A DNA stretch of 64,000 nt, taken from assembly GCA_043779525.1 (NCBI GenBank), contig JAYWED010000008.1, forward strand, positions 24,881 through 88,880, read 5' to 3'. The notes under the pieces were generated by a model. That model saw only the letters and a list, made by a program, of their open reading frames with translations. It was not told the origin of the DNA and did no database searches. This stretch comes from Candidatus Eiseniibacteriota bacterium. GTDB taxonomy: Bacteria; Eisenbacteria; RBG-16-71-46; SZUA-252. Positions 5,485-20,116 of the stretch are shown piece after piece; within the stretch, counting starts at the first letter, position 1, and each line of letters opens with the position of its first letter. Position numbers and translations under genes: made by a program.

Positions 5485-5531
5485 GTCAGGTTGGCCATTC
5501 CTGGCAATCGTTGGCCACCGTTGGCCACCCG
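5485..5531 (-). promoter_or_regulatory. three direct repeats of TGGCCAAC (10/20-bp phasing) immediately upstream of the kinase-NACHT-FGS gene
   Basis: The minus strand reads gTGGCCAACggTGGCCAACgattgccaggaaTGGCCAACctgacc. The same motif block recurs at 12330-12375 and 13648-13680. Confidence 0.5.
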
Positions 5532-5733
5532 AAGCACGAAGCCCAAGGGGGTCATCCATCTGGGGCTTCGCGTAATACCTTGTCGCGACGCTACTCCGAG
5601 GATCGGCCTCAAAATCGCTGGTAGACTCCAGATGGAACAGGACAGCCACTACGCTTTTCAGCGAGAGCCCTCGCGTTTTCGAGCCGATTCTTGATGGTTC
5701 GCATGCACTGCACATCACTCTCGATGGCAGCGA

Positions 5734-6948: not shown

Positions 6949-6984
6949 CTTGCGGGCCGAGGCTCGCGGAGTAGAGCCCCTGAA

Positions 6985-8646
6985 CTACCTGGCGACCACG
7001 ATCTTCCGTGTACTTACCTCGTGTCCGGACTCGAGACGCGCAAAGTAGATCCCGCTTGCTACCTCCCGACCGTCCCAAAACACCGATCGCCAACCCGCCG
7101 CCTGAAGCTCGTTCACCACGGTAGCGACCTGCCTGCCCTGGAGGTCGTATACGACGAGGCGCACCGGCCCCGCCTTGGGGAGACCGTACGTGAACTGCGT
7201 CCTGAACCCGAACGGATTGGGATAGCCCGGCTCCAAGCGCACGACCTTCGGCGCTGCCGTCCCCTCGGGCACAGTCACCCACGTCTCGATCACATTCTCC
7301 TGCGCGGTTACGTCGCGCACTACGAGTCGGTAGCCGTACGTAAGGCCGGGCGTGACGGTATCGTCCACAAAGATGATGTTCCGGTTCAGGTCGGGCACCG
7401 GATGCCCGGCAAGCGTCCAGTCGCTGTCGGCGGTCCGTCGGTAGACGCTCGCCTGTGCGATCTCGTCGCCCGGGGCGTACCAGCTGATGCGAACGTGCCC
7501 GGCTTCCGTTTGAACGCTCAGCATGACGAGGGAGATGGCTGTCGTCGCCGCAGGCGTGAGGCGATAGGTGCCGGTGCCGGCGAAGTTGAAGGAGTTGTCG
7601 CTCGCGACGACCAGGTAGGTGCCCGTGACGGGCGCGGTCGCCGAGACCTGCGTGCCGGAGGGCCCGGAGTTGTTCCTGAGTTCGGTCCCGGTGGGGCTGT
7701 AGAGCCGGAGTTCGGGCGTGAGTGTGCTGCCCTGGACGATCTCCTCCATGGTCACGATCAGGTTGTCGCCGGCGGTAGCGTCGATCGTCCAGAGATCGAG
7801 ATCGCCAAGTTCCAGGGAGCCGAAGCTGAGCCCCGAGGGCAGCGGGCCGCCCTCGTCGCCCGAGGAGACCGTCACCGGCGATCCCGTCTTCGCCATCGTG
7901 ATCTCGTAGGCGCCGGAGCCGGCGAAGTTGAAGGAGTTGTCGCTCGCGATCACCACGTACTGTCCCGTCACGGTCGCGTTCAACTCGACCTCGGAGGCCG
8001 AGGGGGAGCTGTTGGGGCCGAGCTGCACGCCCGTCGGGCTGATGATCCGCAGCTCCGGCGTGAGCGTGCTGCCGGTGGCCGTCTCGCCCATGCGCACCAC
8101 GATCCGGTCGCCCGCGGTGGCGTCGACCGTCCACGCGTCGAGGTCGCCTAGCTCGAGCGTCCCCGCGTTCTTCGCCCCGTTCACGAGCGGGCCGCCCTCG
8201 TCGCCCGAGGAGACCGTCACCGGCGATCCGGACTTCGCCATCGTGATCTCGTAGCCGCCGACCTGCGGCGTGCTCGAGTTGTCGTCGACGACGACCGTGT
8301 AGGTGCCCGTCGAGGACGCGGTGCTCTGAACCTCGGCGGCGGACGGGCCCGAGCTGGTAGCGAGCAACGTAAGGTCTGGGCCGAAGAGGCGAACGCGCGG
8401 CGTGAGCGGCGAGCCGGCCACCGTCTCGCCGACGCGCACGATGACCGCATCGCCCGCATTGGCGCTGACCGTAAAGGTGTCCGCCTGGCCCGTGAACAAG
8501 ATCGCGCCAGCTACGCGCGCGCCGTTGACCAGTGCGCCCTGGGCCGCTGCGCTCGTCGGCCACAACGGCGCCGCCAGCAACGTAACGAGGGCGATGGCGA
8601 TTGGATGGATGGTACCCCACAGCGAAATGCATGCGCGTCTATCCAC
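6985..8646 (-). CDS. secreted multi-repeat protein with a C-terminal T9SS/FlgD-Ig-like sorting domain
   Basis: Signal peptide, then four roughly 85-aa internal repeats (...GETATGSTLTPELR...YEITMAK(S/T)GSPVTVSSGDEGGPL...). The C-terminus, PGYPNPFGFRTQFTYGLPKAGPVRLVVYDLQGRQV...WDGREVASGIYFARLESG, is typical of T9SS type-A / FlgD Ig-like domains. Confidence 0.7.
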   Translation of the reverse strand: MDRRACISLWGTIHPIAIALVTLLAAPLWPTSAAAQGALVNGARVAGAILFTGQADTFTVSANAGDAVIVRVGETVAGSPLTPRVRLFGPDLTLLATSSGPSAAEVQSTASSTGTYTVVVDDNSSTPQVGGYEITMAKSGSPVTVSSGDEGGPLVNGAKNAGTLELGDLDAWTVDATAGDRIVVRMGETATGSTLTPELRIISPTGVQLGPNSSPSASEVELNATVTGQYVVIASDNSFNFAGSGAYEITMAKTGSPVTVSSGDEGGPLPSGLSFGSLELGDLDLWTIDATAGDNLIVTMEEIVQGSTLTPELRLYSPTGTELRNNSGPSGTQVSATAPVTGTYLVVASDNSFNFAGTGTYRLTPAATTAISLVMLSVQTEAGHVRISWYAPGDEIAQASVYRRTADSDWTLAGHPVPDLNRNIIFVDDTVTPGLTYGYRLVVRDVTAQENVIETWVTVPEGTAAPKVVRLEPGYPNPFGFRTQFTYGLPKAGPVRLVVYDLQGRQVATVVNELQAAGWRSVFWDGREVASGIYFARLESGHEVSTRKIVVAR

Positions 8647-8777
8647 TTTGACCTCTTAGCTGGAGACGTTGCTGTCGCGAAGAGTGCCTGAGAACCATCT
8701 GTACGCAATACTGTGCGCAATCGCGCGAAAGGAGCGGCAGAATCCCGAGGGCATCCCGCGCTACTTCGCCAGATCCG

Positions 8778-9734
8778 CTACTTCGCCAGATCAAGCAAGA
8801 GCGAGGACACCCAGCCCTTGTTGCCGATTTCGTCGGAGACCTTCCACCAGATCCCGTCCTTATCCCCTGTCGGATACAGCATCATCCCGACGTCGAGGTT
8901 GCGCACCGCAGAGGATGCCGGATCAGCCTTCTCGTACATGCGCCCAGGCTTGGCCATGGTGACGGACTGCCTGACGTTGTCGGCCTTAGAGTCGGGGCTG
9001 TCCTTCTTGACCTCCTTGACCTCGGCGACGAGCTTCGTGAAGGCGTCGAGGTACGCCATGGCGACGACCTGACCGATCTCGGTGTTGGCGTAGCTGCCCG
9101 CCCCGGCGGCCGCGAAGCCGCCCGAGAACACGCCACCCCCCGCCCCCCAGCCCACGTTGGTCTTCTTCGCGTGGCCCTTGACGACGGCGACCTCCTCGGT
9201 CGAGCGCACATCGGTCAGCGTGAGCACCACATCCGCTGTCTTCTTCTTCAGGCTGACGCCGCCCAGCACGACGCCCAATCCACCCGCGCGCCTGCCCAGC
9301 AATCCACCAAAGGCTCCACCGATGCTCTTTCCGCCGGCGTTCGAGTTCTGACTCACGATGTCCGGGATCAGCACGTAGTCCGCAGCCTTTATCTGGCCCT
9401 TGCCGATGTTCGATTTGCCGCCCAGCTCGCCGCCGGCGGCGAGCTCACGCTCTTTCTCCGCCGCCTCCAGCCCCCTGCCGCGGTCGACCAGCGTGAAGCA
9501 CTTGCATTCGGAGACGAACACCTTGATGAGTGCTTCAGGAGATTCGAGGTTGTACTGCACCCACCACTTCTGCTCGGGCTCGACCACGGACAGGGTGCCG
9601 AACGTCCTGTCGCAGGCAGGAAGTTGCATTTCCTTCTCTCCCGCGGCGACGGCTGAGGCACTCCCTGCCGTGAGGATTGCAAGCGTTAAGAAGTGCACTG
9701 CGAGGCGAAATCGGGCGCGGGACCGGATTACCAT
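8778..9734 (-). CDS. CsgG-family (curli production/transport-like) lipoprotein with a C-terminal SH3-like segment
   Basis: The segment ...KAADYVLIPDIVSQNSNAGG...GHAKKTNVGWGAGG... is characteristic of the CsgG/TolB-like secretion lipoprotein family. A 17-bp tandem duplication sits at the 3' end. Confidence 0.6.
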   Translation of the reverse strand: MVIRSRARFRLAVHFLTLAILTAGSASAVAAGEKEMQLPACDRTFGTLSVVEPEQKWWVQYNLESPEALIKVFVSECKCFTLVDRGRGLEAAEKERELAAGGELGGKSNIGKGQIKAADYVLIPDIVSQNSNAGGKSIGGAFGGLLGRRAGGLGVVLGGVSLKKKTADVVLTLTDVRSTEEVAVVKGHAKKTNVGWGAGGGVFSGGFAAAGAGSYANTEIGQVVAMAYLDAFTKLVAEVKEVKKDSPDSKADNVRQSVTMAKPGRMYEKADPASSAVRNLDVGMMLYPTGDKDGIWWKVSDEIGNKGWVSSLLLDLAK

Positions 9735-9870
9735 TCGATCTCCTTCCCCTGGAAGGGGGAGTGTGTGAGCCAGGTTGTGCTCACTAGATGTCTGCAGCTT
9801 TTTCCAACCTTGGTAAGAGCTACACGCCCCTGGATCACCTCGTGCATCGGGGCGCGGCCCTGATCTTGGG

Positions 9871-9889
9871 CATGGGGGATTCCCCCATG
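9871..9889. repeat. perfect 8-bp-stem hairpin CATGGGGG-ATT-CCCCCATG within a roughly 45-bp direct repeat (second copy at 10378-10422)
   Basis: The block catcggggcg...tgat...gggatgggggattcccccatgg occurs at 9844-9890 and 10378-10422. The two copies bracket the truncated REC-only gene. Confidence 0.6.
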
Positions 9890-9898
9890 GCCGGGATG

Positions 9899-10420
9899 CT
9901 ATTCAGGACCGAGCCCTTCCCGGAGCTTCGGGCTCCCGGACTTCTCCCCGCCGAGCACGTATCGGATGGCGATCAGCAGCGTCTCGCCCAGCTCCGCCTT
10001 GTTGATGTAACCGCGGGCGCCCGCCCGGAAGGCACGTCGGGCGTAGACGGGCGCATCGTGCATGGTGAGCACCAGAACCGGCAGACCCTCATGACCCGCA
10101 CGGATCTCCCTCACCAGTGCCAGCCCATCCCCTTCGTCGAGCGCGAGATCGGTGATGACCAAGTCGGGTCGGGATGAGGCGATCGCCTCGAGCCCTGCCT
10201 GTGGCGTGGCGACCGCGGCGCAGACGGTGAGATCGGACTCGTTGTCGATCAGCGCGGTCAGGCCGCGCCGCACCAGAGCATGGTTGTCGACGATCAGGAT
10301 CCGACGCCTGGCGGGCGCTTCTAGTGCGATGCTCTCGTTGTGCATGCCGACACGGTGCCGCATGAGCGCAGCACTAGCATCGGGGCGACGGGCTGATTCC
10401 GGGATGGGGGATTCCCCCAT
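9899..10420 (-). pseudogene. truncated NarL/FixJ-family response regulator: receiver domain only, LuxR-type HTH missing. Either a gene remnant or a stand-alone REC protein.
   Basis: ILIVDNHALVRRGLTALI...PDLVITDLAL...LPVLVLTMHD... aligns with the receiver domain of the adjacent full-length response regulator at 10439-11123. The ORF stops shortly after the ...YVLGGE helix, with no DNA-binding domain. It is flanked by a repeated roughly 45-bp segment that contains a strong hairpin. Confidence 0.55.
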
Positions 10421-10438
10421 GGGGGGGAAGCGCGGGGG

Positions 10439-11123
10439 TCAGCGGCTGCGGCCGGTTTCAACCCATTGCGTCGCGCGCTGGGCCAGCTCGGCAGTTGTCT
10501 CGAGGCTCAGCTTGTTCTTGATGTGCTCGCGGTGGGTTTCGATGGTCTTGATGCTCAGGTTCAGGGTGTCGGCGATCTGGCGCGTGCTCCGGCCTTGACC
10601 GATCAGCCGGAACACCTGCAGCTCGCGGTCGCTGAGCGCGTCCAGGGGCGAGTCCGTTTCCAGCGTTCGCCCATCGACGAATTTCGCGGCGAGCCGCGCC
10701 TCGAGCGTGTCGCTCATGTACGTCTCGCCGTCGAGCAGACGACGGATGGCAACCAGCACGGTGCTGTCGAGCTGCTGCTTGGTGACATAGCCCCGGGCGC
10801 CGGCTTTCAGGGAACGCTCGGCATAAACCGCTTCGTCGTACATCGAGAGCACCAGCGCCGGAATCGCGGGATGGCGCTTTCGCATCTCCTTGACCAAGTC
10901 CAGGCCGTCACCTTTCCCCAGCGCGAGATCGACGATCACCAGGTCGGGTCGGCGCTCCGGAATGGCCGCGAGCGCCGCCGGGCAAGTCGCGGCTTCCCCG
11001 CACACGGCCAGGTCGGGCTCGGAGTCGATCAGGGCGGCCAGGCCGCGGCGAAGCGTGGGGTGGTCGTCGACGATCAGGATCGTCTTCCGGACCGGGCCGA
11101 CTCGTTCAGCTTTTCTCGCTGGC
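10439..11123 (-). CDS. NarL/FixJ-family response regulator (REC + LuxR HTH)
   Basis: Receiver domain TILIVDDHPTLRRGL...DLVIVDLAL... and a C-terminal LuxR-type HTH, ...LSDRELQVFRLIGQGRSTRQIADTLNLSIKTIETHR.... Its ATG at 11123 overlaps the stop codon of the upstream kinase at 11106-11108, so the two genes share one transcript. Confidence 0.85.
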
Positions 11124-12230
11124 ATGATCAGGCTTCTCGCGGGTGTCGGGTGTGCCGGACAGCGGAAAGGCGCAGGTGACGGCCGTACCGTGCGGGGCCC
11201 GACGTCGCACCTCGAGCGAGCCACCGATTAGGCGCGCCCGATAGGCCATCGTGTGCAGCCCGACCCCCCCTGGAGTGGACGCCTCCTCGGGCATGCCCAC
11301 CCCATTGTCCTTGATGCTCAGGAGACCCCGCCCGTCCTTCGAGCCCAGGCTGATCTCGATCCGATCGGCTTTCCCGTGCGCGATGGCGTTGTTCACCGCT
11401 TCCTGCGCGATGCGAACGATGTGCGACGCGGCCTCGGGACGTGGCCGGAGACAGGGGCGATCACACTCGAGTGTGCAGGTGACACGAAACAGGTGCCGGA
11501 CACCGAGGGTCAGGGTCTCGAGCGCGCCGTCAAGACCGGCCTCGTTGAGGCCAACCGGACCTAGATCGTGGGCCAGGCCGCGGGCCTGGATGATGCTCTC
11601 GTTCAGAAGTGTGGCGATCTCGGCGGCCATAGCCGACGCCGCGGATCCGGCGTTCGCCGCCAGCCTCTTGGAAAGTGTGGAGCCCAGGGCCGCGATACCT
11701 GCCAGGGATTGGCACAGTCCGTCGTGCAGCTCCCGGCCCAATCGCTCCCTTTCTCGATCCAGTACCTCGAGGATCTCCCTCTCGAGCCACTTCTGCCGCG
11801 TGACGTCCCGAGCTGTGGCGTAGATCTCCTGGCGCCCCGGCACAGGCTGCGCGTTCCATTGCAGCCAACGGAATGAACCGTCCTGGTGGCGGTACCGATT
11901 CTCGAAGAGGATCGTCTCTGAGCCTTCGGCAAGCTTGCCGACTTCCGCCTGCGTGGCCACGCAATCGTCGGGGTGCACGAAGTCGAGGAACGGCTTCGCC
12001 TTCAGCTCCTCCAGGGTCCACCCCAGACAGGCCGTCCACGCCGGGTTCAGGTATTTGAAGTATCCACCCTGCCCGGCAATGCACAGCAGGTCGAGCGACT
12101 GGGCGAAGAAGCGGGCGAACTCGTCATCGGCCCGCTGCGAATGTGCTGGCGGGGTTTGCATGCTCTCAACGCGCCGGAGTCGGGTGTTGAGATTTGCCGT
12201 GCGCTGCTTTTGAGTGCGAGCTCGGTCCAT
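11106..12230 (-). CDS. sensor histidine kinase (PAS + HisKA_3 + HATPase_c), NarX/DegS-like partner of the downstream response regulator
   Basis: PAS-like N-terminus. His-box ELHDGLCQSLAGI (HisKA_3 type). ATPase N/G boxes ...AQEAVNNAIAHG..., ...DNGVGMP... and GGVGLHTMAYRA. Confidence 0.8.
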   Translation of the reverse strand: MDRARTQKQRTANLNTRLRRVESMQTPPAHSQRADDEFARFFAQSLDLLCIAGQGGYFKYLNPAWTACLGWTLEELKAKPFLDFVHPDDCVATQAEVGKLAEGSETILFENRYRHQDGSFRWLQWNAQPVPGRQEIYATARDVTRQKWLEREILEVLDRERERLGRELHDGLCQSLAGIAALGSTLSKRLAANAGSAASAMAAEIATLLNESIIQARGLAHDLGPVGLNEAGLDGALETLTLGVRHLFRVTCTLECDRPCLRPRPEAASHIVRIAQEAVNNAIAHGKADRIEISLGSKDGRGLLSIKDNGVGMPEEASTPGGVGLHTMAYRARLIGGSLEVRRRAPHGTAVTCAFPLSGTPDTREKPDHASEKS

Positions 12231-12329
12231 TGTCGAGGGAGAGCCTTTCGGGTCTCGCTTGCGCTGGGGTCCCTCTCAATGTGAGCGGTCACCCCCCAGA
12301 GGTTGAAGCGCCAAACAGTATGACTGAAT

Positions 12330-12375
12330 GGCTACGGCGCTGGCTACGGTCAGGTTGGCCATCGTTGGCCACCCG
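12330..12375 (-). promoter_or_regulatory. two direct repeats of TGGCCAAC (10-bp phasing) upstream of the NarL-type HK-RR operon
   Basis: The minus strand reads gTGGCCAACgaTGGCCAACctgaccgtagcc. The flanking ggctacggtc context is shared with the 5485 and 13648 copies. Confidence 0.5.
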
Positions 12376-12550
12376 AAAGACGAAGCCCCAAGAGGGCCAT
12401 TACGCATCAGCAACTGTGACCGATCTGGGACCTGCTGAGCTTCCCTTCCCGGCCTTCAGCGGCCCCTCGTGGCCAAATGAAAAAGCCCCGGAAGCTGAAC
12501 GCTCCCAAGGCTCTCAATCACTTACGGACGTGGGCCGAGGCTCGTGGATT

Positions 12551-12690
12551 CGGCTTTGCAGACCGTCGCCTTAGCCACTTGGCTATGCCGCCCCCGCAAG
12601 TGGTTGAGTATAGCGTGGTTGGCGAAGGGCGCAATCGGGGAAATCATGAAAGAGCGACGGTCTTATGGACCGTCGCTCTCCTAGACATTT
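12551..12690 (-). repeat. copy of the tRNA-Cys 5' half (to the anticodon loop) plus its promoter and upstream hairpin
   Basis: Near-identical to 1541-1680 from ...TTGCAGACCGTCGCCTTAGCCACTTGGCTATGCCGCC through the -10 TATACT / -35 TTGCGC promoter and the GAGCGACGGTC...GACCGTCGCTC hairpin. It diverges exactly in the anticodon loop, and the tRNA 3' half is absent. Confidence 0.8.
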
Positions 12691-12962
12691 ACCGAATCGG
12701 GGGGCATTCCATCCCGGGCAGCGACGCGCACCGCCTGGATCGAGATCGCCCCCAGGCATTTATCGGGGCAATCCCCATCGCCCTCTCGGTGAAGGGTTGG
12801 CTTCCCGAGATAAGTGCCCTCGGTGTCCTTTGCGGCGAGGTTGTCCATGTGCATGAAGCGGTTGATTCCCATCGTTTCAACGAAGAACTTCTCGGCGGAC
12901 GCCGGGTCTCGGACGACCCAGGCAACCTGGCAGAAGGCTGGAGCAATCACTGGCTTTGTCAT
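12681..12962 (-). CDS. small VOC (glyoxalase/bleomycin-resistance)-like protein, possibly truncated
   Basis: The N-terminus, ...FCQVAWVVRDPASAEKFFVETMGINRF..., resembles a VOC beta-alpha-beta-beta-beta module. It is only about 93 aa long and abuts a copied tRNA-promoter repeat and hairpin. Confidence 0.35.
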   Translation of the reverse strand: MTKPVIAPAFCQVAWVVRDPASAEKFFVETMGINRFMHMDNLAAKDTEGTYLGKPTLHREGDGDCPDKCLGAISIQAVRVAARDGMPPDSVNV

Positions 12963-13411
12963 GTTTGAGACCCCGGTGGAGGCCACGCATCGATGACCTG
13001 ACGCAGGGCAACGATCTTCCCGAGGTGGTAAGCATTATGAACGGCCAAGCTCTCGAGCATCTCGGCAAGCGTGACTCCCGGACTCACTTCCTTCATCAGC
13101 GCCTCATGTGAGCGCCCTAACTCTACTGCCGTCTCCGACCCGGCGAGAAACTCACTGACGAGATCTTCCCACATGCGCTCGTTGCCAGGCGCCTCTGAGG
13201 GAAACTGCTGTCCCCCGTCAATATATGCAGCTGCGGCTGGTTCGTCGCATTGAACGACGATCGACTGCCACTTGGTTGTGTGCCAGAGCTCCTCGTAGAT
13301 CGTATGCGGGAGCCCAGGTGGCCGCACGCTCACCTGCTCGACCGTCAGACCGGAGAGCAGGCGAGCCCGGGACATGAACTCGTCAATGAAAAGATGCTCC
13401 CACTGACCCAT
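12959..13411 (-). CDS. DinB/YfiT-like (DinB_2 superfamily) metal-dependent protein
   Basis: 150 aa, with a four-helix-bundle type sequence, ...TVEQVSVRPPGLPHTIYEELWHTTKWQ...HNAYHLGKIVALRQ..., and the conserved His pattern of DinB_2. Confidence 0.55.
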   Translation of the reverse strand: MGQWEHLFIDEFMSRARLLSGLTVEQVSVRPPGLPHTIYEELWHTTKWQSIVVQCDEPAAAAYIDGGQQFPSEAPGNERMWEDLVSEFLAGSETAVELGRSHEALMKEVSPGVTLAEMLESLAVHNAYHLGKIVALRQVIDAWPPPGSQT

Positions 13412-13647
13412 GAATCGAATGTCTTTCCCTTAAAGATGACGTGCGGCAGTCCGCCGAACAAGAATTAGACTGAACCATGTATCAGGATACGGAGACCAGC
13501 CTATCCCAAGCCCCCTCCGCTCGTGTGAAATTCCGGAGGGCGACGACGGCACCTCTGCCTACCAGGAGCGGGGCAGCTTCTGGACACGGACGTGGGCTCG
13601 CCTTCGCTCGAACCCGCAGCAGACGGATCGCAAACTCTCGCCCCATT

Positions 13648-13680
13648 GGCTACGGTCGTGGCTAGGTTGGCCATTCCTGG
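13648..13680 (-). promoter_or_regulatory. single TGGCCAAC motif with the conserved flanking context, upstream of the DinB-like/VOC genes
   Basis: The minus strand reads gccaggaaTGGCCAACctagccacgaccgtagcc. Confidence 0.4.
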
Positions 13681-13723
13681 CGAGGACCGGCCCCAAAATC
13701 GGCGAAAATCAGATCAAAATACG

Positions 13724-13806
13724 TTGCAGACCGTCGCGTTAGCCACTTGGCTATGCCGCCCCCGCAAGTAGCGTGGTTGGCGGTGGGCGCAATCGAGGAA
13801 ATAGTG
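13724..13806 (-). repeat. second copy of the tRNA-Cys 5' half plus promoter, with a 10-bp internal deletion
   Basis: TTGCAGACCGTCGCGTTAGCCACTTGGCTATGCCGCCCCCGCAAGT--AGCGTGGTTGGCGGTGGGCGCAATCGAGGAAAT matches 1548-1640. The break point is again in the anticodon loop. Confidence 0.75.
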
Positions 13807-13821
13807 CGAGGGCTTCGGGAA

Positions 13822-14550
13822 TTACGCTCCACCGCCGACCTGCACGGGCTCGCCCTGCTCGGCCATATGCGGCTTGCCGAGCGAGTCCAGGATATGCCCG
13901 GACTTGTCGCGCTTGGTCTCGAGATAGAACCGGTTGTACTCGTTCGCAGGGATCACGTGAGGCACGCGACTGGAGATCCGAACACCAAACCGGATTAACT
14001 CCTCGACCTTCTTCGGGTTGTTGGTCAACAAGCGGACCGAGCCGACCCGAAGGCTGTGAAGCATGTGAGCCGCGATCGAGTACTCGCGCTCATCATCGCG
14101 AAATCCGAGAGCGAGATTGGCCTCGACTGTGTCCAGACCCCGATCTTGGAGTCCGTAGGCGCGCAGTTTGTTGAGCAAACCGATGCCGCGCCCTTCCTGC
14201 CTTAGATAGAGCACCAGGCCGCAGGGTTCGCCGGCAATCACGCGCAGCGCAGCCTCGAGCTGGTCGCGACAGTCACAGCGAAGCGATCCGAGCGCGTCTC
14301 CGGTCAGGCACTCTGAGTGCACCCGCGTCGGCACGCCCTCGCGTCCGATCGGGTTACCGTGCATGATCGCGACGTGTTCCTTGCCGTCACGGTTGTTCCA
14401 GAACGCGACCACCTGAAATAGCCCGAAACGGCTGGGCAGGTCCGCGATGGCGACAATTCGAACGCAAATCTTCTTTTCCCCAACACCGGCGCATTCGTGA
14501 TCGGCCTCTTCCCTGAGAATCGCATCGATCTCCCCGACGGTCAGTCGCAT
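13822..14550 (-). CDS. ribA: GTP cyclohydrolase II (RibA-type)
   Basis: ...RVHSECLTGDALGSLRCDCRDQLEAALRVI...YLRQEGRGIGLLNKLRAYGLQDRGLDTVEANLALGFRDDEREY... carries the Zn-binding CX2C...C pattern and catalytic Arg/Tyr motifs of RibA. The upstream 147 codons of the track ORF are low-complexity and were not included. Confidence 0.85.
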   Translation of the reverse strand: MRLTVGEIDAILREEADHECAGVGEKKICVRIVAIADLPSRFGLFQVVAFWNNRDGKEHVAIMHGNPIGREGVPTRVHSECLTGDALGSLRCDCRDQLEAALRVIAGEPCGLVLYLRQEGRGIGLLNKLRAYGLQDRGLDTVEANLALGFRDDEREYSIAAHMLHSLRVGSVRLLTNNPKKVEELIRFGVRISSRVPHVIPANEYNRFYLETKRDKSGHILDSLGKPHMAEQGEPVQVGGGA

Positions 14551-14569
14551 GAAGAACTCCTTTGGAGGT

Positions 14570-15625
14570 TCACATGCACTCCGGCAGCATCTGCGCGAAG
14601 CGTTCGGCCAGGACGATTCCGGATCCGTAGGCGCCTTCGGCGCCGCCGGCGTCGTGGAGGCCGTCGCCGGCGACACCCAGCAACGCACCATCCTCAAGTT
14701 CCACGACGAGCGGACACGCCAACTCCGAGCCCGCCGCCACCCGCGCTCGTCGCCATATATGAGATTGCACCAAGTCGGGTTCCGCGATCCAGTCTCCGTG
14801 CAGTGTGGCCGCCTCCTGGAGTAGAGCGCGCGTCCAGGAACCCGCGGGGTCGTTGAGGTGCTTGGCCGAGAACGCCGGCCGTGCCTGAAGGACCAGCATG
14901 AGCCGGAGAGTCCCTGCACGTTTGCTCGAGTCTTGCAGAATGGAGTGAATCCCGGAACTCGATCGGGGAAAGCTCGCCTGCCATTCGGGCGCACGGGTCG
15001 AGGAGGGGTAGCGGGCGATCACAGCGAGACAGGGGAGCATGTGCACCAATTCAAGGATCGGTATCTGCGCTGCGATGGCATCGGGAAGCGGATCCATGGC
15101 ATGCAGCAGTCTTATCGCGGAAGGAACAGGCATCGTGAGCGCCACGGCCTTCGCTCGCACGGTCTCACCGGTCGTCAGTTCGAGTTCCCAGCGACGCCCG
15201 CCGCGCGCGGTGCCACCTCCTGCCAATCGCAACGCCGCGACCTCGGTCTCGAGGCGCACATCGAGTCCACGCGCGAGATGCTTCGCCAGCCTGCTCACGC
15301 CTTCCGCGAAGGCGAGTCGACGGTCGGTCCCGGCAAAGGCTTCCGGCCTGCAAGGCAAGCCCTCGCCTTCCACGACGAGCGGCCAGTCCGGAATGAGGGT
15401 GGCGTCGGAGACCGCATCCAACTCGGCGAGGAACTTCTCCGATCGTCCATGGAGATAGGACAGCCCATGATCCACGGGCTGGGCATCCACCCTGCGTGTC
15501 GCACAGCGACCGCCCACGCCGCGCGCGCGCTCGAGGACCATCGGGGCACGGCCGCACGCGCGAAGTCCCCGGGCAAGCGCGAGTCCTGCGATCCCGGCGC
15601 CGACGACAATCACGTCGTGGACCAT
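14570..15625 (-). CDS. FAD/NAD(P)-binding oxidoreductase (renalase / amine-oxidase-like)
   Basis: N-terminal dinucleotide-binding motif MVHDVIVVGAGIAGLALA...LERARGVGGR. Size is about 350 aa. Confidence 0.75.
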   Translation of the reverse strand: MVHDVIVVGAGIAGLALARGLRACGRAPMVLERARGVGGRCATRRVDAQPVDHGLSYLHGRSEKFLAELDAVSDATLIPDWPLVVEGEGLPCRPEAFAGTDRRLAFAEGVSRLAKHLARGLDVRLETEVAALRLAGGGTARGGRRWELELTTGETVRAKAVALTMPVPSAIRLLHAMDPLPDAIAAQIPILELVHMLPCLAVIARYPSSTRAPEWQASFPRSSSGIHSILQDSSKRAGTLRLMLVLQARPAFSAKHLNDPAGSWTRALLQEAATLHGDWIAEPDLVQSHIWRRARVAAGSELACPLVVELEDGALLGVAGDGLHDAGGAEGAYGSGIVLAERFAQMLPECM

Positions 15626-15658
15626 GTCGAACCGATGGCACTCGTCACTTGAGAGCGG

Positions 15659-16225
15659 TCATTCCGTTGGACGTCGCACTCGCTGTACGAGTTCCTGGTA
15701 CGCGGCCTCCTCAAACGGTCCGTGGGCGCGCCAGGCCACCCGCCCCGCGCGGTCCAGCAGCAGCAGATAGGCAACGTCGTGTTCTGAATATCCCACCCGC
15801 CGCTTCCAGTCGCCGGCGCCGCCATACACCGTGATCACATGATCGTGGAGTTCGCGCGGGGTGCCGCGCCGCATCCCTCTATTGATGAACGGCTGGGCCA
15901 GGCGGCCGGCGCCTCCGATCACGGGTATTTCGAAATAGGCGAGAACAGTATCCGAGCCGAAGTCGCGGCGGAACCGGTTCCCCCAGGTCTCCACGTCGTG
16001 CCTCGAGTGGTACGTGAAGCCCAGCATGAGCAGGACCTCGCGTCCCCGGACCGCGTCGGGCAGCACAATCCTCTTTCCGCTGAGAAGCTTGCCTCGAAGC
16101 GGAGGAAGATTGTCTCCGAGCGGAATCATCGAGCCCTCCACGAGGTTGGCGACGAGCAAAGCCGGCATCATGAATAGCAGCATCCGCCCGAGCCGCCGGA
16201 CACCGTGCCTCATCGTTTCGCGCAT
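15659..16225 (-). CDS. hypothetical exported protein
   Basis: Signal-like N-terminus MRETMRHGVRRLGRMLLFMMPALLVA. No clear domain. It sits inside the minus-strand operon that follows the B12-MerR regulator. Confidence 0.45.
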   Translation of the reverse strand: MRETMRHGVRRLGRMLLFMMPALLVANLVEGSMIPLGDNLPPLRGKLLSGKRIVLPDAVRGREVLLMLGFTYHSRHDVETWGNRFRRDFGSDTVLAYFEIPVIGGAGRLAQPFINRGMRRGTPRELHDHVITVYGGAGDWKRRVGYSEHDVAYLLLLDRAGRVAWRAHGPFEEAAYQELVQRVRRPTE

Positions 16226-16244
16226 GGCAGCCCTTCCCTCGACT

Positions 16245-17189
16245 CTAGGAACCGCCGGCGAGTCTGGCTTCGAACGCCGCGAGATTTGGAAAGCACTCGG
16301 CTCCCGTCGAAGCTTCGGGCGCCCCGGCCCCCCCCACCCACAGCGGAACACGTTTCGGGAGGAGAGCGCGAAGTTCGACGACGGCTCTCACGGACCGCGC
16401 GTGGCGCTTGGCTGCGGAAATACTGACCGTCACCGCCTCGGCGTTGACGGTCGTCGCGGCCTCGGCAATCTGATCGATGGGCGCGTTCGCACCCAGATAG
16501 ACGACGCGATAGCCGTGGAGGGCCATGATCGTGCACGCCATGAGAAGCCCCCCCTCATGCGCGTCCCCTGGCAGCGTCGCCGCGGCGACGCGAGGGCCGC
16601 GCGCCTCCCGATCGTAGGGCTCACGCACCTCTCGAAGGAAGTCCGAGAGACAGGCCGAGGCAAAATGTTCGTGCCGGACCTGGAGCCTTCCCTCGTGCCA
16701 CGCCCGGCCGATCTCGATCATGAAGGGGCCGCCGAGATCCTGGAGGAAGTGGAGGGGACCGAACCGAACCCAGTTCGCACTGAGCTCGCGCATCAAGGGC
16801 CCGCGGTCCAGCTCCATTGTAGCCTGGAGCATCGCGGCGATCGACCGCTCGAACCCCTCGGCGGCATGGACATCCGGAAGGGAGACCGCAGCCAGCCGAT
16901 CCCCGCGCGGCTCCGCCAGAGCAAGCAAAGCGTCCAGTGCCCGCTCCGACAGAGGAACGATCTCGTTGGGGCGGTGCCCCAGGGCCAGGAGCCGAGCGAC
17001 GCGCCGGAGACGCTCCACCGATTCGGCGGTGTAGAGACGGTGACCCGAGGGCTTCCGCACGGGCATGGGGGAACCATAGCGACGCTCCCACGTGCGCAGC
17101 GTCTCGACCGGGATGCGCGTGGCCCGGGACAACGCCCCTATGGAGAACTTCCTAGGGTCTGCCATTCCGCGCTTGCGCCTCTTGTCCAT
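16245..17189 (-). CDS. MerR-family transcriptional regulator with a C-terminal cobalamin(B12)-binding domain (CarH/LitR-like light-responsive regulator)
   Basis: MerR HTH FSIGALSRATRIPVETLRTWERRYG. C-terminal B12-binding Rossmann segment ...HEGGLLMACTIMALHGYRVVYLGANAPIDQIAEAA.... Confidence 0.75.
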   Translation of the reverse strand: MDKRRKRGMADPRKFSIGALSRATRIPVETLRTWERRYGSPMPVRKPSGHRLYTAESVERLRRVARLLALGHRPNEIVPLSERALDALLALAEPRGDRLAAVSLPDVHAAEGFERSIAAMLQATMELDRGPLMRELSANWVRFGPLHFLQDLGGPFMIEIGRAWHEGRLQVRHEHFASACLSDFLREVREPYDREARGPRVAAATLPGDAHEGGLLMACTIMALHGYRVVYLGANAPIDQIAEAATTVNAEAVTVSISAAKRHARSVRAVVELRALLPKRVPLWVGGAGAPEASTGAECFPNLAAFEARLAGGS

Positions 17190-17290
17190 CGCTTCACCCA
17201 ACTCATTCCCCATTGTGGGCCACCCGCCCAGGTCTCTGCTCCAGTCCTTCTTTGGTGCTGCTCGTAGCTTTTGATGAACATTTTTTGAAC

Positions 17291-17353
17291 GGGATTCATA
17301 GTAGGGCAATCCCACAACGGATATACTGTTCATTATATATTCAAACTTTGAAT
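17291..17353. promoter_or_regulatory. AT-rich divergent promoter region carrying two inverted repeats, candidate operators for the MerR/B12 regulator
   Basis: GGGATTC-N9-GCAATCCC at 17291-17313. ATTCAAA-CT-TTTGAAT (7-bp perfect inverted repeat) at 17339-17353. Local GC is about 35 % against a roughly 68 % background. Confidence 0.45.
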
Positions 17354-17465
17354 CCATCGTCGAGGATGGGCGTCCAATTACTCGTGGACCGCCAGCCTGT
17401 TGGGTGGCCCCACACGGAGACGGGCGGCACCGGTACTTCACCACCTATGGAAAAGGAGGACGGGC

Positions 17466-17690
17466 ATGAAGAATCTCGACGTGATCGTGGCTGTTTTGGT
17501 AGTTGTGGGAGGACTGAACTGGGGCCTCGTGGCCTTGGCGAATTTCGACCTGGTGGCATTCCTCACCGGAGCCGGCGGGTTCGGAGCCAAGAACGCCCTG
17601 GGCACGGTGACCTACGGGCTTGTTGGGCTCTCTGCCCTCTACCAGGCGCTGCAGCGTGGGGCGATACAGCGCCGCTGGGCGAAGGCCTGA
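17466..17690 (+). CDS. DUF378-family small membrane protein
   Basis: MKNLDVIVAVLVVVGGLNWGLVALANFDLVAFL... is the hallmark DUF378 (YuzA-like) sequence. It is divergently transcribed from the MerR/B12 regulator across an AT-rich region containing palindromes. Confidence 0.7.
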   Translation: MKNLDVIVAVLVVVGGLNWGLVALANFDLVAFLTGAGGFGAKNALGTVTYGLVGLSALYQALQRGAIQRRWAKA

Positions 17691-17764
17691 TGTCTCCAGG
17701 GGTGGCGGGCGCGAATTTCCAAACCCGCCACCCGTTTCCTTTCGAACGTGGAGGGTGAACCCTA

Positions 17765-17932
17765 ATGCGCACGACAGATTGGTCCATTACGCTTTTCCTA
17801 GCTGCAGCCTCCATCTCGTTCTTCTTCTCGGTCATTCTGTGGTTCTTCGTAAACAAGGACTATGGCGTCTTCGTCGGCCTTTGGGTGCCTTCGATCCTGT
17901 CTCTAGGCGCACTCGTTAGGCGGGCTCGATGA
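17765..17932 (+). CDS. small hydrophobic (single-TM) protein, 55 aa, not in the ORF track. A 32-aa hydrophobic ORF follows at 17929-18027 with an ATGA overlap.
   Basis: MRTTDWSITLFLAAASISFFFSVILWFFVNKDYGVFVGLWVPSILSLGALVRRAR. The TGA stop overlaps the ATG of a second tiny ORF, MNLEWLLGVVGMAVFTLALIAARISLGRDQEP. Codon use is atypical and lower in GC. Confidence 0.3.
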   Translation: MRTTDWSITLFLAAASISFFFSVILWFFVNKDYGVFVGLWVPSILSLGALVRRAR

Positions 17933-18014
17933 ACCTCGAGTGGTTGCTTGGCGTGGTCGGGATGGCGGTCTTCACCCTCGCGCTCATCGCCGCTCGGATT
18001 TCGCTTGGTCGCGA

Positions 18015-18587
18015 TCAAGAACCATGATCAGCTCGGACGTTACGAGACGGGCATCCCACTCTCTGGTACGTTTGGACGAGCCCGGACCGACCGTGCAGGC
18101 TACGTATCGACTCCCCTGCGAGCTGGAAGCCCGCGTTCTGCAGAACTTTGCATGAGGCAGCGTTATCGGCTGCGACGATCGCAATGATTCGCGGCAGGGA
18201 GAAGCGCGGCAGCGCCCATTCCGACATCGCCTTGACCGCTTCGGATGCAAACCCTTTGCGCTGGCGTCCCTCCTCGATTGCGTAACCTATCTCAACCTGC
18301 CCATCGAGCGGACTGAGTCCAACGTGTCCGATGAGTTCCCGCGAACCATGGATACAGACCCCGAGGACATAGGGCGCAAGGGATGGTGTGCCGGGGTCGC
18401 GACATTTCTCGATCAGGTGCCGCAACACCTCGAGCGCGCGTGCCTCACTCTCATACACCTGATCCGGAAGCCACGCGCGCACTCCGGACTCCTGGCTCAT
18501 TGCGAAGGCCTTGGGTGCATCCTCCGGCACGAAGCAGCGCAGCGCCACGGACCGCGATAGGATGGGGGGCTGAGTGTTCGCGATCAT
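18015..18587 (-). CDS. GNAT-family N-acetyltransferase (RimJ/RimL-like)
   Basis: ...IGHVGLSPLDGQVEIGYAIEEGRQRKGFASEAVKAM... is the acetyl-CoA binding motif A (R/Q-x-x-G-x-G/A). Confidence 0.8.
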   Translation of the reverse strand: MIANTQPPILSRSVALRCFVPEDAPKAFAMSQESGVRAWLPDQVYESEARALEVLRHLIEKCRDPGTPSLAPYVLGVCIHGSRELIGHVGLSPLDGQVEIGYAIEEGRQRKGFASEAVKAMSEWALPRFSLPRIIAIVAADNAASCKVLQNAGFQLAGESIRSLHGRSGLVQTYQRVGCPSRNVRADHGS

Positions 18588-18594
18588 GCCGTCG

Positions 18595-19947
18595 TTACTT
18601 CAGCTCCAGCTTGTAGAGCCTCCCGGCGTTCGTGCGCAGCACCATCGTTGCGATCTCCTCGGCGCGGGCGCGACTGACCTCGCCGGTCCGGATCATCTCG
18701 GTGAGGGCCAGCGCGAGCGCCGCTCTCGCGTTCCTGGCGGCGACCCAGGCGGTCAGCTCCCAGCCCATGTCCGGCCCGAGCGCGAACGCGTCGGAGCCGA
18801 AGAGCACCTTCTCGGGGTACTGGCTGAGCCAGTCCTTCAGCACCTCGGCCAGCTTGGCCGGCGGGTAGACCAGCGTCATCAGCGACATGTCGACGTAGAC
18901 GTTCGGCTTCCACAGCATCGCGCCGGCGCGAGCCGAATAGACGCCGCCGCCGTGGAGGATGACGAAGTTCGTCTGACGCAGGCTCGGATCGTCGAACGCC
19001 GCCTCCAGCAGCATCGGGTCGGCCCCGGCCACGCTGTAGAACGGCCCGAATGCGTGAAACGAATGGACGTGGACCGCCATCCCGAGACGACCGGCTTCAC
19101 GCGCGATGTAGCGAAAGAGAAAATCCTGGAGCGCCTTGTAGTCGTCGTGGGACGGTTCGCCGCCTGCGGCGTACCTCCCGTAGATCCTGCTCGCGGTCGC
19201 GGCGGGAACCTCCGCGAAGTCGAGTGAACGGATGTAGGCGGCCTCGAATTTCACCGCGATGCAGCCTCCCTTCCGCTGCGCCTCGAGCGTGGGAGTCACC
19301 ACCGTCTTGAGATAGGCGTCGAGCGTCGCGGGGCGCCTGGCGATCTTGAGATCGGACATGTAGCGCCGCAAGTGCTTCGCTTCGAGCGGATAGAGCACCT
19401 CGCGGTCGGGCGAGACGGCAGCCTCGGCCTTCGTGGAGAGCGGCAGCAATAGCGCGTCCACGTAGGAGACCCAGCGAAACCGCGGCGGTGTGAGGCCCGG
19501 CCCCATGGCGAGGCGGTTCGCGAAGAGCACTTCCGTGCCGACCTGGTCCAGCACCCACGCCGGGAACCTCTCTCCCTGCTCTTTGGCGACCCGCTGCATC
19601 GTCCCGCGCAGCTCCTTCATGTGCGCGTCGCTCAGGTCGGCGTAGGGATACCGGTAGAGCGCCTTGTATGCGGCGAGCCAGTCCGGGTTGTCCGGCCTGA
19701 GCCGCGCGGGCATCTCGATCGGGATGCCGTCGAGCGGCAGCGCGTCGTAGTCCGAATCTGCGGGAGCCACACTGTTCGCGTGGCTGTGATTGTCCACCGC
19801 GCGGATCTTCCCGATGAATGCGGCGATCCCGGGGTCCGCTCCTGACTGAGGGGAAGCCGCCGCGATGGCGCCAGGGAGAGGCGAGACGCGCGCCAGAACC
19901 GCGGCGCCAACAACGAGCAGAAATGTCGCGATCCTGTGTGGCCTCAT
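18595..19947 (-). CDS. amidohydrolase-family metal-dependent hydrolase (exported)
   Basis: Signal peptide, HSHANS metal-binding start, and the ...AVHVHSFHAFGPF..., ...ILHGGGVY... and ...FGSDA... motifs of the amidohydrolase_2 TIM-barrel. Confidence 0.7.
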   Translation of the reverse strand: MRPHRIATFLLVVGAAVLARVSPLPGAIAAASPQSGADPGIAAFIGKIRAVDNHSHANSVAPADSDYDALPLDGIPIEMPARLRPDNPDWLAAYKALYRYPYADLSDAHMKELRGTMQRVAKEQGERFPAWVLDQVGTEVLFANRLAMGPGLTPPRFRWVSYVDALLLPLSTKAEAAVSPDREVLYPLEAKHLRRYMSDLKIARRPATLDAYLKTVVTPTLEAQRKGGCIAVKFEAAYIRSLDFAEVPAATASRIYGRYAAGGEPSHDDYKALQDFLFRYIAREAGRLGMAVHVHSFHAFGPFYSVAGADPMLLEAAFDDPSLRQTNFVILHGGGVYSARAGAMLWKPNVYVDMSLMTLVYPPAKLAEVLKDWLSQYPEKVLFGSDAFALGPDMGWELTAWVAARNARAALALALTEMIRTGEVSRARAEEIATMVLRTNAGRLYKLELK

Positions 19948-20116
19948 GAACGTTCCTCTACTTGTTACGCATCGGTTGGCTGTCACTCCGTGAAACTACT
20001 TGTATTTATGAGGGCTCGGACGTATGATACCGCGTTCTCATCGCACGTGTAAGTGCTTTGAGGACGGGGCGTTCAGAGGTGTTCTCGTCCGAAGCCGTTG
20101 GAGAAAGGTGGCGCAC

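Follow-up and report, generated by a model that had tools for sequence, protein, structure and literature searches.

Displaced tRNA-Cys 5' halves and a conserved downstream arm point to serial integration at a tRNA gene in a Candidatus Eiseniibacteriota genome

Why would a bacterial genome carry, upstream of its intact tRNA-Cys gene, two further copies of the promoter and 5' half of that gene? A preliminary description of a 64-kb stretch (hereafter the window) of a metagenome-assembled genome (MAG) contig from Candidatus Eiseniibacteriota reported such copies and proposed that they are scars of elements that integrated in series by means of a tRNA 5'-half attP or, alternatively, that they act as portable promoters. 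The features that raise this question are as follows.

1505-1580, minus strand: intact tRNA-Cys(GCA), the one such gene called by ARAGORN (Rfam tRNA, 68.4 bits).
1581-1628, minus strand: putative tRNA promoter region, with -10 TATACT at 1600-1595 and a -35-like TTGCAC at 1622-1617, read from the sequence.
1639-1666, minus strand: hairpin upstream of the promoter (-21.1 kcal/mol, z = -3.85, by folding).
12551-12711, minus strand: copy 2, with a hairpin at 12652-12679 (-25.2 kcal/mol, z = -5.41, by folding), promoter at 12593-12640 and tRNA nucleotides 1-38 at 12592-12555.
13724-13818, minus strand: copy 3, with tRNA nucleotides 1-37 bearing one substitution and a promoter remnant from which a 10-bp deletion has removed the -10 box.

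Alignment confirmed the two extra copies, the reported coordinates of which were correct to ~20 nt. The promoter and tRNA-Cys nucleotides 1-37/38 are repeated, and all three copies share one orientation, as had been claimed. A 35-nt probe of the 5' half matched at 1546-1580 (0 mismatches), 12558-12592 (0) and 13726-13760 (1), where no match was expected in 100 shuffles. Copy 2 is 88% identical to positions 1539-1699 over 161 nt, including the upstream hairpin, and 100% identical over the 46 nt that comprise the 5' half and -10 region. Copy 3, which abuts the stop codon of a GTP cyclohydrolase II gene, is 98% identical over 46 nt and, beyond the 10-bp deletion, 80% identical over 50 nt. Neither copy was called as a tRNA by ARAGORN, and Rfam returned no matches in the window besides tRNA. 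When read from the sequence, identity runs through A37 (13724) in copy 3 and through A38 (12555) in copy 2, where three of the next four bases also match. Both breaks fall inside the anticodon loop CTGCAAA, so that the claim of divergence at a single nucleotide holds to within one nucleotide.

The -10/-35 promoter described earlier is supported by its position and by its retention in more than 12 related loci, whereas a consensus promoter scan did not flag it and the best -35, TTGCAC, matches the consensus at 3/6 positions. The hairpin at 1639-1666, also present in four related loci (L061, L107, L117, and L132), resembles a terminator of the gene before it and belongs to a conserved left (P) arm.

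Directly after each break lies a second conserved sequence, a right (P') arm of ~230 nt, in which a GTCGCGACAA motif and a terminator-like hairpin are accompanied by TGGCCAAC repeats (three) and ACCGTAGCC repeats (two). At least 14 other loci, drawn from Eisenbacteria MAGs and from metagenomes of soil or sediment, have this arm behind a tRNA-Cys 5' half; among them, the break is followed by the arm in L048, L066, L074 (twice), and 11 metagenome contigs. Both its sequence and its length are strongly conserved across genomes, and its spacing is invariant at 138 nt. The window contains it three times, once at a third junction (denoted 1').

5475-5637, minus strand: complete right (P') arm of junction 1', with the GTCGCGACAA motif, a hairpin at 5535-5572, and TGGCCAAC repeats at 5490-5497, 5510-5517, and 5520-5527.
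12339-12395, minus strand: eroded distal arm of junction 2, with two TGGCCAAC repeats and ACCGTAGCC (repeat families D7 and D8; motif search).
12475-12515, minus strand: terminator-like hairpin and U-tract, 45 nt after the end of copy 2.
13651-13723, minus strand: arm of junction 3, with the proximal part ATTTTGATCTGA...GGGGCCGGTCCTCG joined by an internal deletion to the last TGGCCAAC repeat.

The arm at junction 1' aligns to those of L074 and L066 from 5 nt past the break point and is 82-88% identical (blastn) to 12 loci of the family. The tRNA half and promoter that would be expected to precede it are missing (5638+), and a 7-mer, AGTGGCT, at 5640-5665 is a possible remnant of the half that is not statistically supportable. 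An arm followed by a kinase gene, as at this junction, was also identified in L150, but there the 5' half is intact. At junction 2 the proximal arm has been replaced, and the region 12450-12556 folds at -52.7 kcal/mol (z = -3.95); its predicted terminator comprises the stem GCCUUGGGAGC/GCUUCCGGGGC followed by UUUUUCAUUU. A consensus terminator scan did not flag this hairpin, and its assignment, like that of the tRNA promoter, rests on folding and conservation instead of consensus scans. Covariation in the arm hairpin is weak (1/12 pairs). In L166 a different hairpin occupies the equivalent place, and this swap suggests selection for termination.

These hairpins bear on the proposal that the copies are kept as portable promoters for the histidine kinase-response regulator (HK-RR) operon and the DinB gene or, in a variant of that proposal, as a source of tRNA-half small RNAs. 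Both the -10 and the -35 of copy 2 are indeed intact, its 5' half and -10 region match the active gene without a difference, and genes downstream of the arms begin 25-110 nt past the arm in the tRNA orientation. However, copy 3 has no -10 box, the strong hairpin and U-tract of copy 2 stand between its promoter and the histidine kinase gene, and a hairpin is conserved at the same place across the family, even where, as in L166, it is a different one. Moreover, the promoter and half have been lost entirely at several junctions (window 5638+, L174, and L190). A promoter function for the copies is therefore improbable.

To place the copies in a wider context, 185,579 species genomes were screened for the identical 37-nt 5' half. 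The screen yielded 116 matches, of which 104 were intact genes and four were merely cut by the end of the locus. The other eight were truncated copies breaking after CTGCAA, of which the one in L093 lies at a contig end and seven are internal (L020, L031, L048, L066, L074 twice, and L081). In L081, a 5' fragment is followed by a 4.5-kb island that ends in a tyrosine integrase (PF00589, E = 1.5e-22), a promoter, and an intact tRNA-Cys, such that a direct repeat spanning the promoter and 5' half flanks the element. The phage contig L002 carries an integrase, a promoter, and a tRNA-Cys 5' half followed by terminase and tail genes, whereas L211 carries an Xis-like HTH_17 gene, an integrase, a promoter, and a tRNA-Ser 5' half followed by an arm with a ATCGCGACA motif. 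Both arrangements fit a free attP state or possibly a tandem junction. The integrase family comprises 82 homologs, and in the contexts inspected, with the exception of L203, the integrase gene immediately precedes a tRNA gene for Cys, Ser, or Lys, or the 5' part of one, in the same orientation. The arms beside these integrases at tRNA-Cys, tRNA-Ser, and tRNA-Lys differ from the window arm type.

Such loci weigh heavily against a reading without any mobile element, in which the tRNA promoter region was duplicated as a local segment or recombined unequally, or the contig was misassembled. The repeats are direct and close together, the contig is metagenome-assembled, and gene conversion could account for the 100% identity between copies 1 and 2. 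Yet the sequence after the break belongs to a family that follows tRNA-Cys halves in unrelated assemblies, the break nucleotide is the same in all loci, and L081 provides an integrase-bearing equivalent. An independent Logan unitig (L004) is also identical to the window across 12600-13768 and carries copy-2-specific and copy-3-specific variants at its two ends. Duplication or artefact is thus largely refuted already, and we regard it as very improbable. Two further candidates were rejected: a split or permuted tRNA gene, because intact genes exist, and a transposon end, because the break always falls at the same tRNA nucleotide and integrase-bearing analogs exist.

The conserved arms, the geometry of L081, and the attP-like arrangements in L002 and L211 support the serial integration put forward in the preliminary description, and the copies are most likely att junctions that record a series of site-specific integrations into the tRNA-Cys anticodon loop. 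According to this model, attP would begin with a terminator hairpin, continue with a tRNA promoter and tRNA nucleotides 1-37/38, and end with the ~230-nt right arm, and crossover by a tyrosine integrase would take place inside the anticodon loop (7 nt). From the incoming element the tRNA would then receive a new promoter and 5' half, while the old promoter and 5' half would be displaced upstream to abut the right arm of the element. Repeated rounds would yield an array with the newest cassette nearest the tRNA, and transcription from the tRNA promoters thus orphaned would end at the arm terminators. The intact gene at 1505-1580 would accordingly combine a promoter and 5' half from the last cassette with the original chromosomal 3' half. 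When read in this manner, the array would consist of GTP cyclohydrolase II, junction 3, a DinB cassette (A), junction 2, an HK-RR-CsgG cassette (B), the eroded junction 1', a kinase-NACHT cassette (C), and the promoter and intact tRNA-Cys. The cargo of the three cassettes is as follows.

12681-13411, minus strand: cassette A (~1.2 kb), with a DinB_2 protein at 12959-13411 (Pfam) and a small ORF at 12681-12986.
5734-12230, minus strand: cassette B (~6.9 kb), with two hypothetical proteins, a CsgG-like protein, a response regulator, a LuxR-type response regulator, and a PAS histidine kinase (ORFs and Pfam).
1809-5450, minus strand: cassette C (~4.1 kb), with a Ser/Thr kinase-NACHT-FGE protein of 1213 aa (Pfam).

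The 'VOC' label previously given to the ORF at 12681-12986 is unsupported, as no Pfam match to this ORF was found. The segment 1580-12555, earlier delimited as one insertion of 11 kb, does appear to be inserted DNA but is composite, since the arm at 5475-5637 parts the kinase-NACHT gene from the HK-RR cassette; cassettes B and C may nevertheless have arrived together as one composite. A difference in codon usage across the segments, which the preliminary description had suggested looking for, was detected: third-position GC (GC3) is 0.67-0.82 in most cassette genes compared to 0.85-0.88 in the flanks. Besides the lack of an integrase, of a viral contig with the arm, and of an isogenic empty site (below), one observation on the array itself counts against the model. 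Junction 1', which is expected to be the youngest, has lost its tRNA half, whereas the older junction 2 has a perfect one, which indicates that decay is not clock-like. In addition, repeats of 100-160 nt in a MAG contig could lead to misordering of cassettes, and it is the links of cassette A only that are confirmed by the independent unitig.

Comparison with related genomes, also suggested earlier, partly bears out the model in that content differs at the boundaries. In L107, a homolog of the ORF at 18595-19986 is joined directly to the hairpin, promoter, and tRNA-Cys, with 17 kb absent, and in L026 a homolog of the kinase-NACHT protein (76%) adjoins tRNA-Cys. In L212, a tmRNA gene harbors a 4-kb island that has no integrase and whose single gene encodes another homolog (73%). 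Genomes encoding homologs of the GTP cyclohydrolase II (85-88% aa) keep the MerR-amine oxidase-cyclohydrolase synteny, and in none of these relatives was a tRNA-Cys found after the cyclohydrolase gene; they show a synteny break rather than an isogenic empty site. A strictly isogenic empty site, with GTP cyclohydrolase II directly beside tRNA-Cys, was not recovered among the relatives.

The absence of a visible integrase, reported earlier, was confirmed by Pfam searches of all cassette ORFs and by six-frame searches of the entire 64-kb window with phmmer (using two family integrases as queries) and with the tyrosine-recombinase box-II motif. Neither an integrase nor an integrase pseudogene was found in the ~15 loci with the window arm type, and searches of viral contigs for this arm type yielded zero matches or one unrelated phage coding sequence. 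Integrase-less cassettes would have been moved either by an integrase of their own that has since been lost or by one acting in trans.

Integration on the 5' side of a tRNA gene is termed 'reversed target orientation' (Zhao and Williams, 2002, J Bacteriol 184:859, as given in PMC6563490), and there are documented cases both of islands that carry a 5' tDNA fragment and of islands in tandem arrays (PMC4383910; PMC6563490). In the Islander dataset, 159 of 3919 islands carry a 5' tDNA fragment (PMC4383910). Islander calls for an intact tDNA with a co-oriented end fragment on the correct side, a tyrosine integrase inside the island, and a length of 2-200 kb (PMC4383910). In the window, 5' fragments (nucleotides 1-37/38) lie upstream of and co-oriented with the intact tDNA, no cassette contains a tyrosine integrase, and cassettes B and C are within the length range, whereas cassette A is too short. 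Like 5'-side islands, the window has its 5' fragment displaced upstream, the element would have to supply a promoter and 5' part, and the crossover would center on the anticodon loop. The anatomy of the window junctions fits an attP that carries the promoter and 5' portion of a tRNA gene and replaces them on integration, as do L002 and L211, where an integrase adjoins a promoter and a 5' half only; in L081, both ends of the element are seen. In intact relatives (L081, L205, L201, and L204), a tyrosine integrase stands beside the regenerated tRNA, as in 5'-side islands; unlike these, the window units lack an integrase and one is < 2 kb, which places them outside the Islander filters. The window array is a further case of an already described, rare mode of 5'-side tRNA integration. 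As far as our searches show, the literature holds no earlier description of Candidatus Eisenbacteria as the host phylum or of this arm family.

A variant of the integration model holds that the cassettes never encoded an integrase. Units comprising arm, cargo, hairpin, promoter, and 5' half would instead form a gene-capture system functionally akin to integron cassettes or CIMEs, in which a trans-acting integrase cuts them out as circles and inserts them into tRNA-Cys. CIMEs are cis-mobilizable elements that arise through accretion at an att site, a process described for ICESt1 and ICESt3. Consistent with gene capture, none of the ~15 junction contexts contains an integrase or its pseudogene, the units are small (1.2-7 kb) and often single-gene (L174, L212, and window cassettes A and C), the arms are conserved with their invariant spacing, and each junction inside the array rebuilds a complete attP-like site. 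Conversely, short contigs break at repeats and integrase-bearing members may have failed to assemble, integrase deletion is common in islands, and several junctions (window 1' and 3, L157, L174, and L190) are eroded, as dead scars would be. Genome, metagenome, and viral scans turned up no trans-acting integrase whose arm sites match. We therefore consider gene capture possible but clearly the less likely account.

As in tandem arrays and CIMEs, the window units lie head to tail at one attB, are bounded by att repeats, and lack recombination genes, and the internal junctions could support excision given an integrase. The att sites are partly eroded, with the -10 deletion in copy 3, the half lost at 5638+, and the proximal arm replaced at copy 2. 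Unlike in CIMEs, the units are much smaller and often single-gene, the att repeat is a promoter and tRNA 5' half rather than a short 3' core, and the same scans revealed no master element that carries a cognate integrase and shares the arms. As in integron arrays, small, promoter-dependent or single-gene, integrase-less cassettes are stacked at one site, with the newest presumably beside the attachment point. In contrast to integrons, the window has no intI or other tyrosine recombinase, no attI, no Pc, and no attC-type imperfect palindromes; its junctions are tRNA-derived, its recombination site, ~350 nt long, is double-stranded and attP-like and includes arm repeats, and every unit has its own terminator and tRNA promoter.

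Serial integration at tRNA-Cys, as inferred here, provides a clean case of 5'-side tRNA-gene integration with several stacked units in an uncultured phylum. In this mode, the mobile element rather than the host ends up providing the promoter of an essential tRNA. The arm sequence can serve to detect such cassettes; current island finders demand an integrase and therefore reject them. More speculatively, and with considerable doubt on our part, Candidatus Eisenbacteria could carry a tRNA-Cys gene-capture platform of integrase-less cassettes that share a standard attachment module and are moved in trans. Such a platform may stack and shuffle signaling and possibly defense genes, including Ser/Thr kinases, kinase-NACHT STAND proteins, and two-component systems, and would, if real, be a tRNA-gene-based functional analog of the integron. 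Mobilization of the cassettes in trans, if it proves real, would give kinase, STAND, and two-component genes a new means of spreading and multiplying in these genomes.

The array at tRNA-Cys is composed of three integrase-less cassettes in tandem and was probably made by a rare 5'-side mode of integration; sequence comparison suggests that the elements that formed it are related to a tyrosine-integrase family common in Eisenbacteria. The features concerned are as follows, where copies 2 and 3 each comprise a tRNA-Cys 5' half and its upstream region.

1505-1580, minus strand: intact tRNA-Cys(GCA), the sole tRNA-Cys in the window (ARAGORN)
12551-12711, same orientation as tRNA-Cys: copy 2 (repeat comparison)
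13724-13818, same orientation as tRNA-Cys: copy 3 (repeat comparison)
13822 to ~14550, minus strand: GTP cyclohydrolase II gene
1809-5450, minus strand: kinase-NACHT-FGE protein gene
12550 down to 5644: cassette B
5643 down to ~1700: cassette C
Intact gene around the break, tRNA orientation: ...ACGGT CTGCAAA ACCGT...
Copy 2 around the break: ...CTGCAAA GCCGAA...
Copy 3 around the break: ...CTGCAA CGTATT...

In plus-strand reading the 3' end of tRNA-Cys comes first, and the promoter lies at higher coordinates. The preliminary description held that two co-oriented copies of the 5' half and promoter accompany the intact gene and that they share a break in the anticodon loop. Both observations were confirmed, with the break points of the two copies 1 nt apart. 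A 35-nt 5'-half probe (≤3 mismatches) matched only three places in the window (the intact gene, copy 2, and copy 3) and had no match in shuffled sequences. When the three were aligned, copy 2 was 88% identical to the intact-gene region over 161 nt, including 46 nt (5' half and -10 region) at 100%, and copy 3 was 98% identical over 46 nt, followed by a 10-bp deletion and then by sequence at 80% identity. ARAGORN called no tRNA at either copy. Two independent metagenome contigs (L120 and L121) both end 3 nt past the GTP cyclohydrolase II stop codon, the exact start of copy 3 in the window, which may point to a repeat or a polymorphism between strains at this position as well.

From the left edge of the window to ~20 kb, every gene is on the minus strand. 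In tRNA orientation, the GTP cyclohydrolase II gene is followed by copy 3, a DinB_2 gene and a small ORF without a family match (cassette A), copy 2, and then genes for a PAS histidine kinase, a LuxR-type response regulator, a response regulator, a CsgG-like protein, and two hypothetical proteins (cassette B). The kinase-NACHT-FGE gene (cassette C), a hairpin, the promoter, the intact tRNA-Cys, and a Ser/Thr kinase gene that runs past the window edge complete the order. No recombinase gene is among them. A repeat family built on GGTTGGCCAT lies just downstream of copies 3 and 2, and also at 5475-5551, a place without any tRNA fragment. The conserved sequence that follows the break (the arm) is complete at 5475-5637, with the alignment beginning 5 nt past the expected break, carries an internal deletion at 13651-13723, and retains only its distal part at copy 2 (12339-12395). 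With three arms, the window therefore has three junctions, not two; the 11-kb segment previously proposed as a single insert is split by the arm at 5475-5637 into two cassettes. The uneroded form of this third junction (5' half, arm, then kinase gene) is found in locus L150, which is 72.6% identical to window positions 5193-5615.

An exact 37-nt 5' half scanned against one genome per species identified 114 loci, chiefly in MAGs labelled Eisenbacteria, Krumholzibacteriota, Latescibacteria, or "Deltaproteobacteria." Intact tRNA-Cys genes accounted for 104 of 116 matches. The other 12 comprised four intact genes cut by the locus end (L046, L069, L089, L099), seven internal truncated copies (L020, L031, L048 and L066 on one contig, two in L074, and L081), and an eighth truncated copy with the same break at a contig end (L093). 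The break was directly after CTGCAA in all eight truncated copies. In L048, L066, and L074 it is followed by a conserved arm that aligns with the three window arms and has this consensus (5' to 3', tRNA orientation):

Part 1: AGnATTTTGAnnTGA
Part 2: GATTTnGAGGCCGGTCCTCGAAGTAG
Part 3: GTCGCGnCAAGGTAATAC
Part 4: hairpin GAAGCCCCnGG...CCTGGGGCTTC with T-rich tail
Part 5: GGTGGCCAAC-G-nTGGCCAAC-GATTGCCAGGAA-TGGCCAAC
Part 6: CTGACCGTAGCCAnGACCGTAGCCA

Counted from GTCGCG, every complete member has a 138-nt arm. Scanning metagenomes with the distal arm yielded 77 loci, 11 of which were true family members; the others were rejected as chance matches or an unrelated phage gene.

The predicted integrated structure is seen in L081 (Eisenbacteria SMAG_U4537), where ~43 nt of promoter together with the 5' half, as far as the anticodon loop, form a direct repeat and the promoter begins directly after the integrase stop codon:

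412-450: 5' fragment
3855-4871: tyrosine integrase, last gene of a 4.5-kb island (PF00589, E = 1.5e-22)
4915-4990: intact tRNA-Cys, preceded by the promoter

In the 43.7-kb IMG/VR phage contig L002, an integrase (1343-2485) is followed by a promoter-like sequence, the tRNA-Cys 5' half up to and including the anticodon stem-loop, and then terminase and tail genes; only the 5' half, and no complete tRNA, follows the integrase and promoter-like sequence. This arrangement would fit the look of a free attP in this model, and an internal junction of a tandem array would look alike. At E < 1e-20, 82 homologues of the L002 integrase were recovered, several of them from Eisenbacteria; the contexts fetched among them were:

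L201: HTH_17 (Xis-like), integrase, tRNA-Ser
L204: HTH_17, integrase, tRNA-Lys
L205-L207: integrase, tRNA-Cys
L202, L209: integrase, then tRNA-Ser 5' part at contig end
L211: HTH_17, integrase, promoter, tRNA-Ser 5' half only (GGTCTCGAAA, break, CATGAGG)
L203: integrase beside a tRNA-Cys 3' half, the classical arrangement

A ATCGCGACACCGCAAT motif lies 38 nt past the break in L211. More generally, a (G/A)TCGCGACA motif and then a hairpin occur 40-50 nt past the break in L002, L031, L211, and the window-type arms (L020 has a looser GTCGCTGCAA version), and this shared feature links the arms that lack an integrase with the way attP is built in the L002 integrase family. Together, the conserved arms and the L081, L002, and L211 relatives indicate that the earlier serial-integration interpretation was right in substance. 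The L203 integrase (10001-11145; 39% identity) is followed by the tRNA-Cys 3' half rather than the 5' half, which suggests that the L002 family uses its targets in both orientations. Integrase-like ORFs also lie just downstream of intact tRNA-Cys 3' ends in L077 and L105; tRNA-Cys is therefore also a target of classical 3'-side elements in these phyla.

The preliminary description saw no integrase, and a tyrosine recombinase could not be detected in any part of the 64-kb window. Likewise, no integrase is seen beside any of ~15 junctions with a window-type arm, a result limited by short contigs broken at repeats. The neighbors are instead Ser/Thr kinases (L093, L150, L155, L174), LytS-type kinases (L074, L166), a DUF4143 ATPase, LysR, a photolyase, AcrB, and antiporter subunits. 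An origin of the cassettes as deletion derivatives of integrase-bearing elements remains an explanation. That they are moved in trans, a proposed likeness to CIMEs or integron cassettes, is a tentative and rather doubtful reading.

The promoter region, TTGC(A/G)C...CCAACCACGCTATACTCAA, is conserved in >12 loci. Strong upstream hairpins accompany the intact gene (1639-1666; -21.1 kcal/mol, z = -3.9) and copy 2 (12652-12679; -25.2 kcal/mol, z = -5.4), recur in L061, L107, L117, and L132, and are read as terminators that end transcription of the preceding gene and insulate the promoter of the tRNA. It had also been suggested that the copies act as portable promoters for downstream genes, and some read-through is possible. 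However, in the family arm the orphaned 5' half is followed by a GC-rich hairpin that ends in a T-rich tail, and in L166 this position is taken by an unrelated hairpin. Copy 2 has had its proximal arm replaced, yet a strong hairpin with UUUUUCAUUU lies 45 nt past the break. Moreover, the 10-bp deletion in copy 3 removed AGTAT of the -10 box, and the promoter or half is lost or mutated in ~5 of 17 junctions (window 5638+, window copy 3, L157, L174, L190). An incoming element would thus carry a terminator that silences the displaced tRNA promoter, and orphaned promoters would more readily be lost than used, both of which speak against portable promoters.

In the close relative L107 (VBJS01000009.1, region 5671-6249; 87% nucleotide identity), the homologue of the 18595-19986 ORF directly adjoins the hairpin, promoter, and intact tRNA-Cys, and window 1666-18596 has no counterpart there. 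No isogenic empty site was found among the relatives compared (L107, L026, and those sharing GTP cyclohydrolase II). In L026 (SMAG_U1378), a 76% kinase-NACHT homologue is followed by two small toxin-antitoxin-like genes and the same promoter and tRNA-Cys; these ORFs (1540-2050), which the window lacks, are convergent, and one looks by eye like an HTH antitoxin. The MerR-amine oxidase-cyclohydrolase order is kept in relatives whose GTP cyclohydrolase II is 85-88% identical, with other genes, and no tRNA-Cys, after the cyclohydrolase. The proposed composition check did reveal a difference, with third-position GC of 0.67-0.76 across 12.6-18.6 kb versus 0.85-0.88 in flanking genes. The region that runs from GTP cyclohydrolase II through GNAT (13822-18594) may be a still older insertion whose outer junction has not survived. 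Misassembly of cassette A is argued against by an independent Logan unitig (L004) that matches 12600-13768 exactly, with copy-2-specific variants at one end and copy-3-specific variants at the other.

Cargo of the same kind is also mobile at another tDNA, there in the classical 3' arrangement: in L212 (JGI Ga0568857_0001915, 9436-13797), a 4,006-bp island without an integrase holds a 73% kinase-NACHT-FGE homologue as its single gene and is bordered on one side by an intact tmRNA gene and on the other by a 24-nt exact repeat of that gene's 3' end. A GTCTCCA(A/G)AATGTCTCCA motif lies near both ends of this island.

Integration arrays of this kind are already known. In Islander, which discarded integrase-less candidates, a 5' tDNA fragment occurs in 159 of 3919 islands and an anticodon-centred site in 2083, and 125 tandem arrays have at least two islands, only four of them at least three (PMC4383910). 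New at the level of detail are the family of arms and the phylum that hosts it, the terminator built into the element, and the fact that an integrase is consistently lacking.

A hypothetical ORF of cassette B (553-675 aa) contains 3-4 tandem repeats of 342-345 nt (7592-8356; 70-96% identical) and adjoins the CsgG-like gene, which points to a surface protein of repetitive, possibly Ig-like, build. In the kinase-NACHT protein, the kinase domain has a match to PADLOC family PD-T4-6 (E = 1e-94, domain level only), and a DUF4143 ATPase cassette (L074:5509-6678) matches the candidate family PDC-S01; part of the cargo may serve in defence against phages. The commonest cargo beside junctions is Ser/Thr kinase genes, often kinase-TPR (L174:319-3333, L150, L155, L093, and window 1-1440 and 22320-24596). 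L174 is a single-kinase cassette, from the arm to the next promoter and 5' half, and its kinase has a 46% homologue in the window, in the gene immediately downstream of the intact tRNA-Cys. Such cassettes may be a route by which kinase paralogues spread in these genomes.
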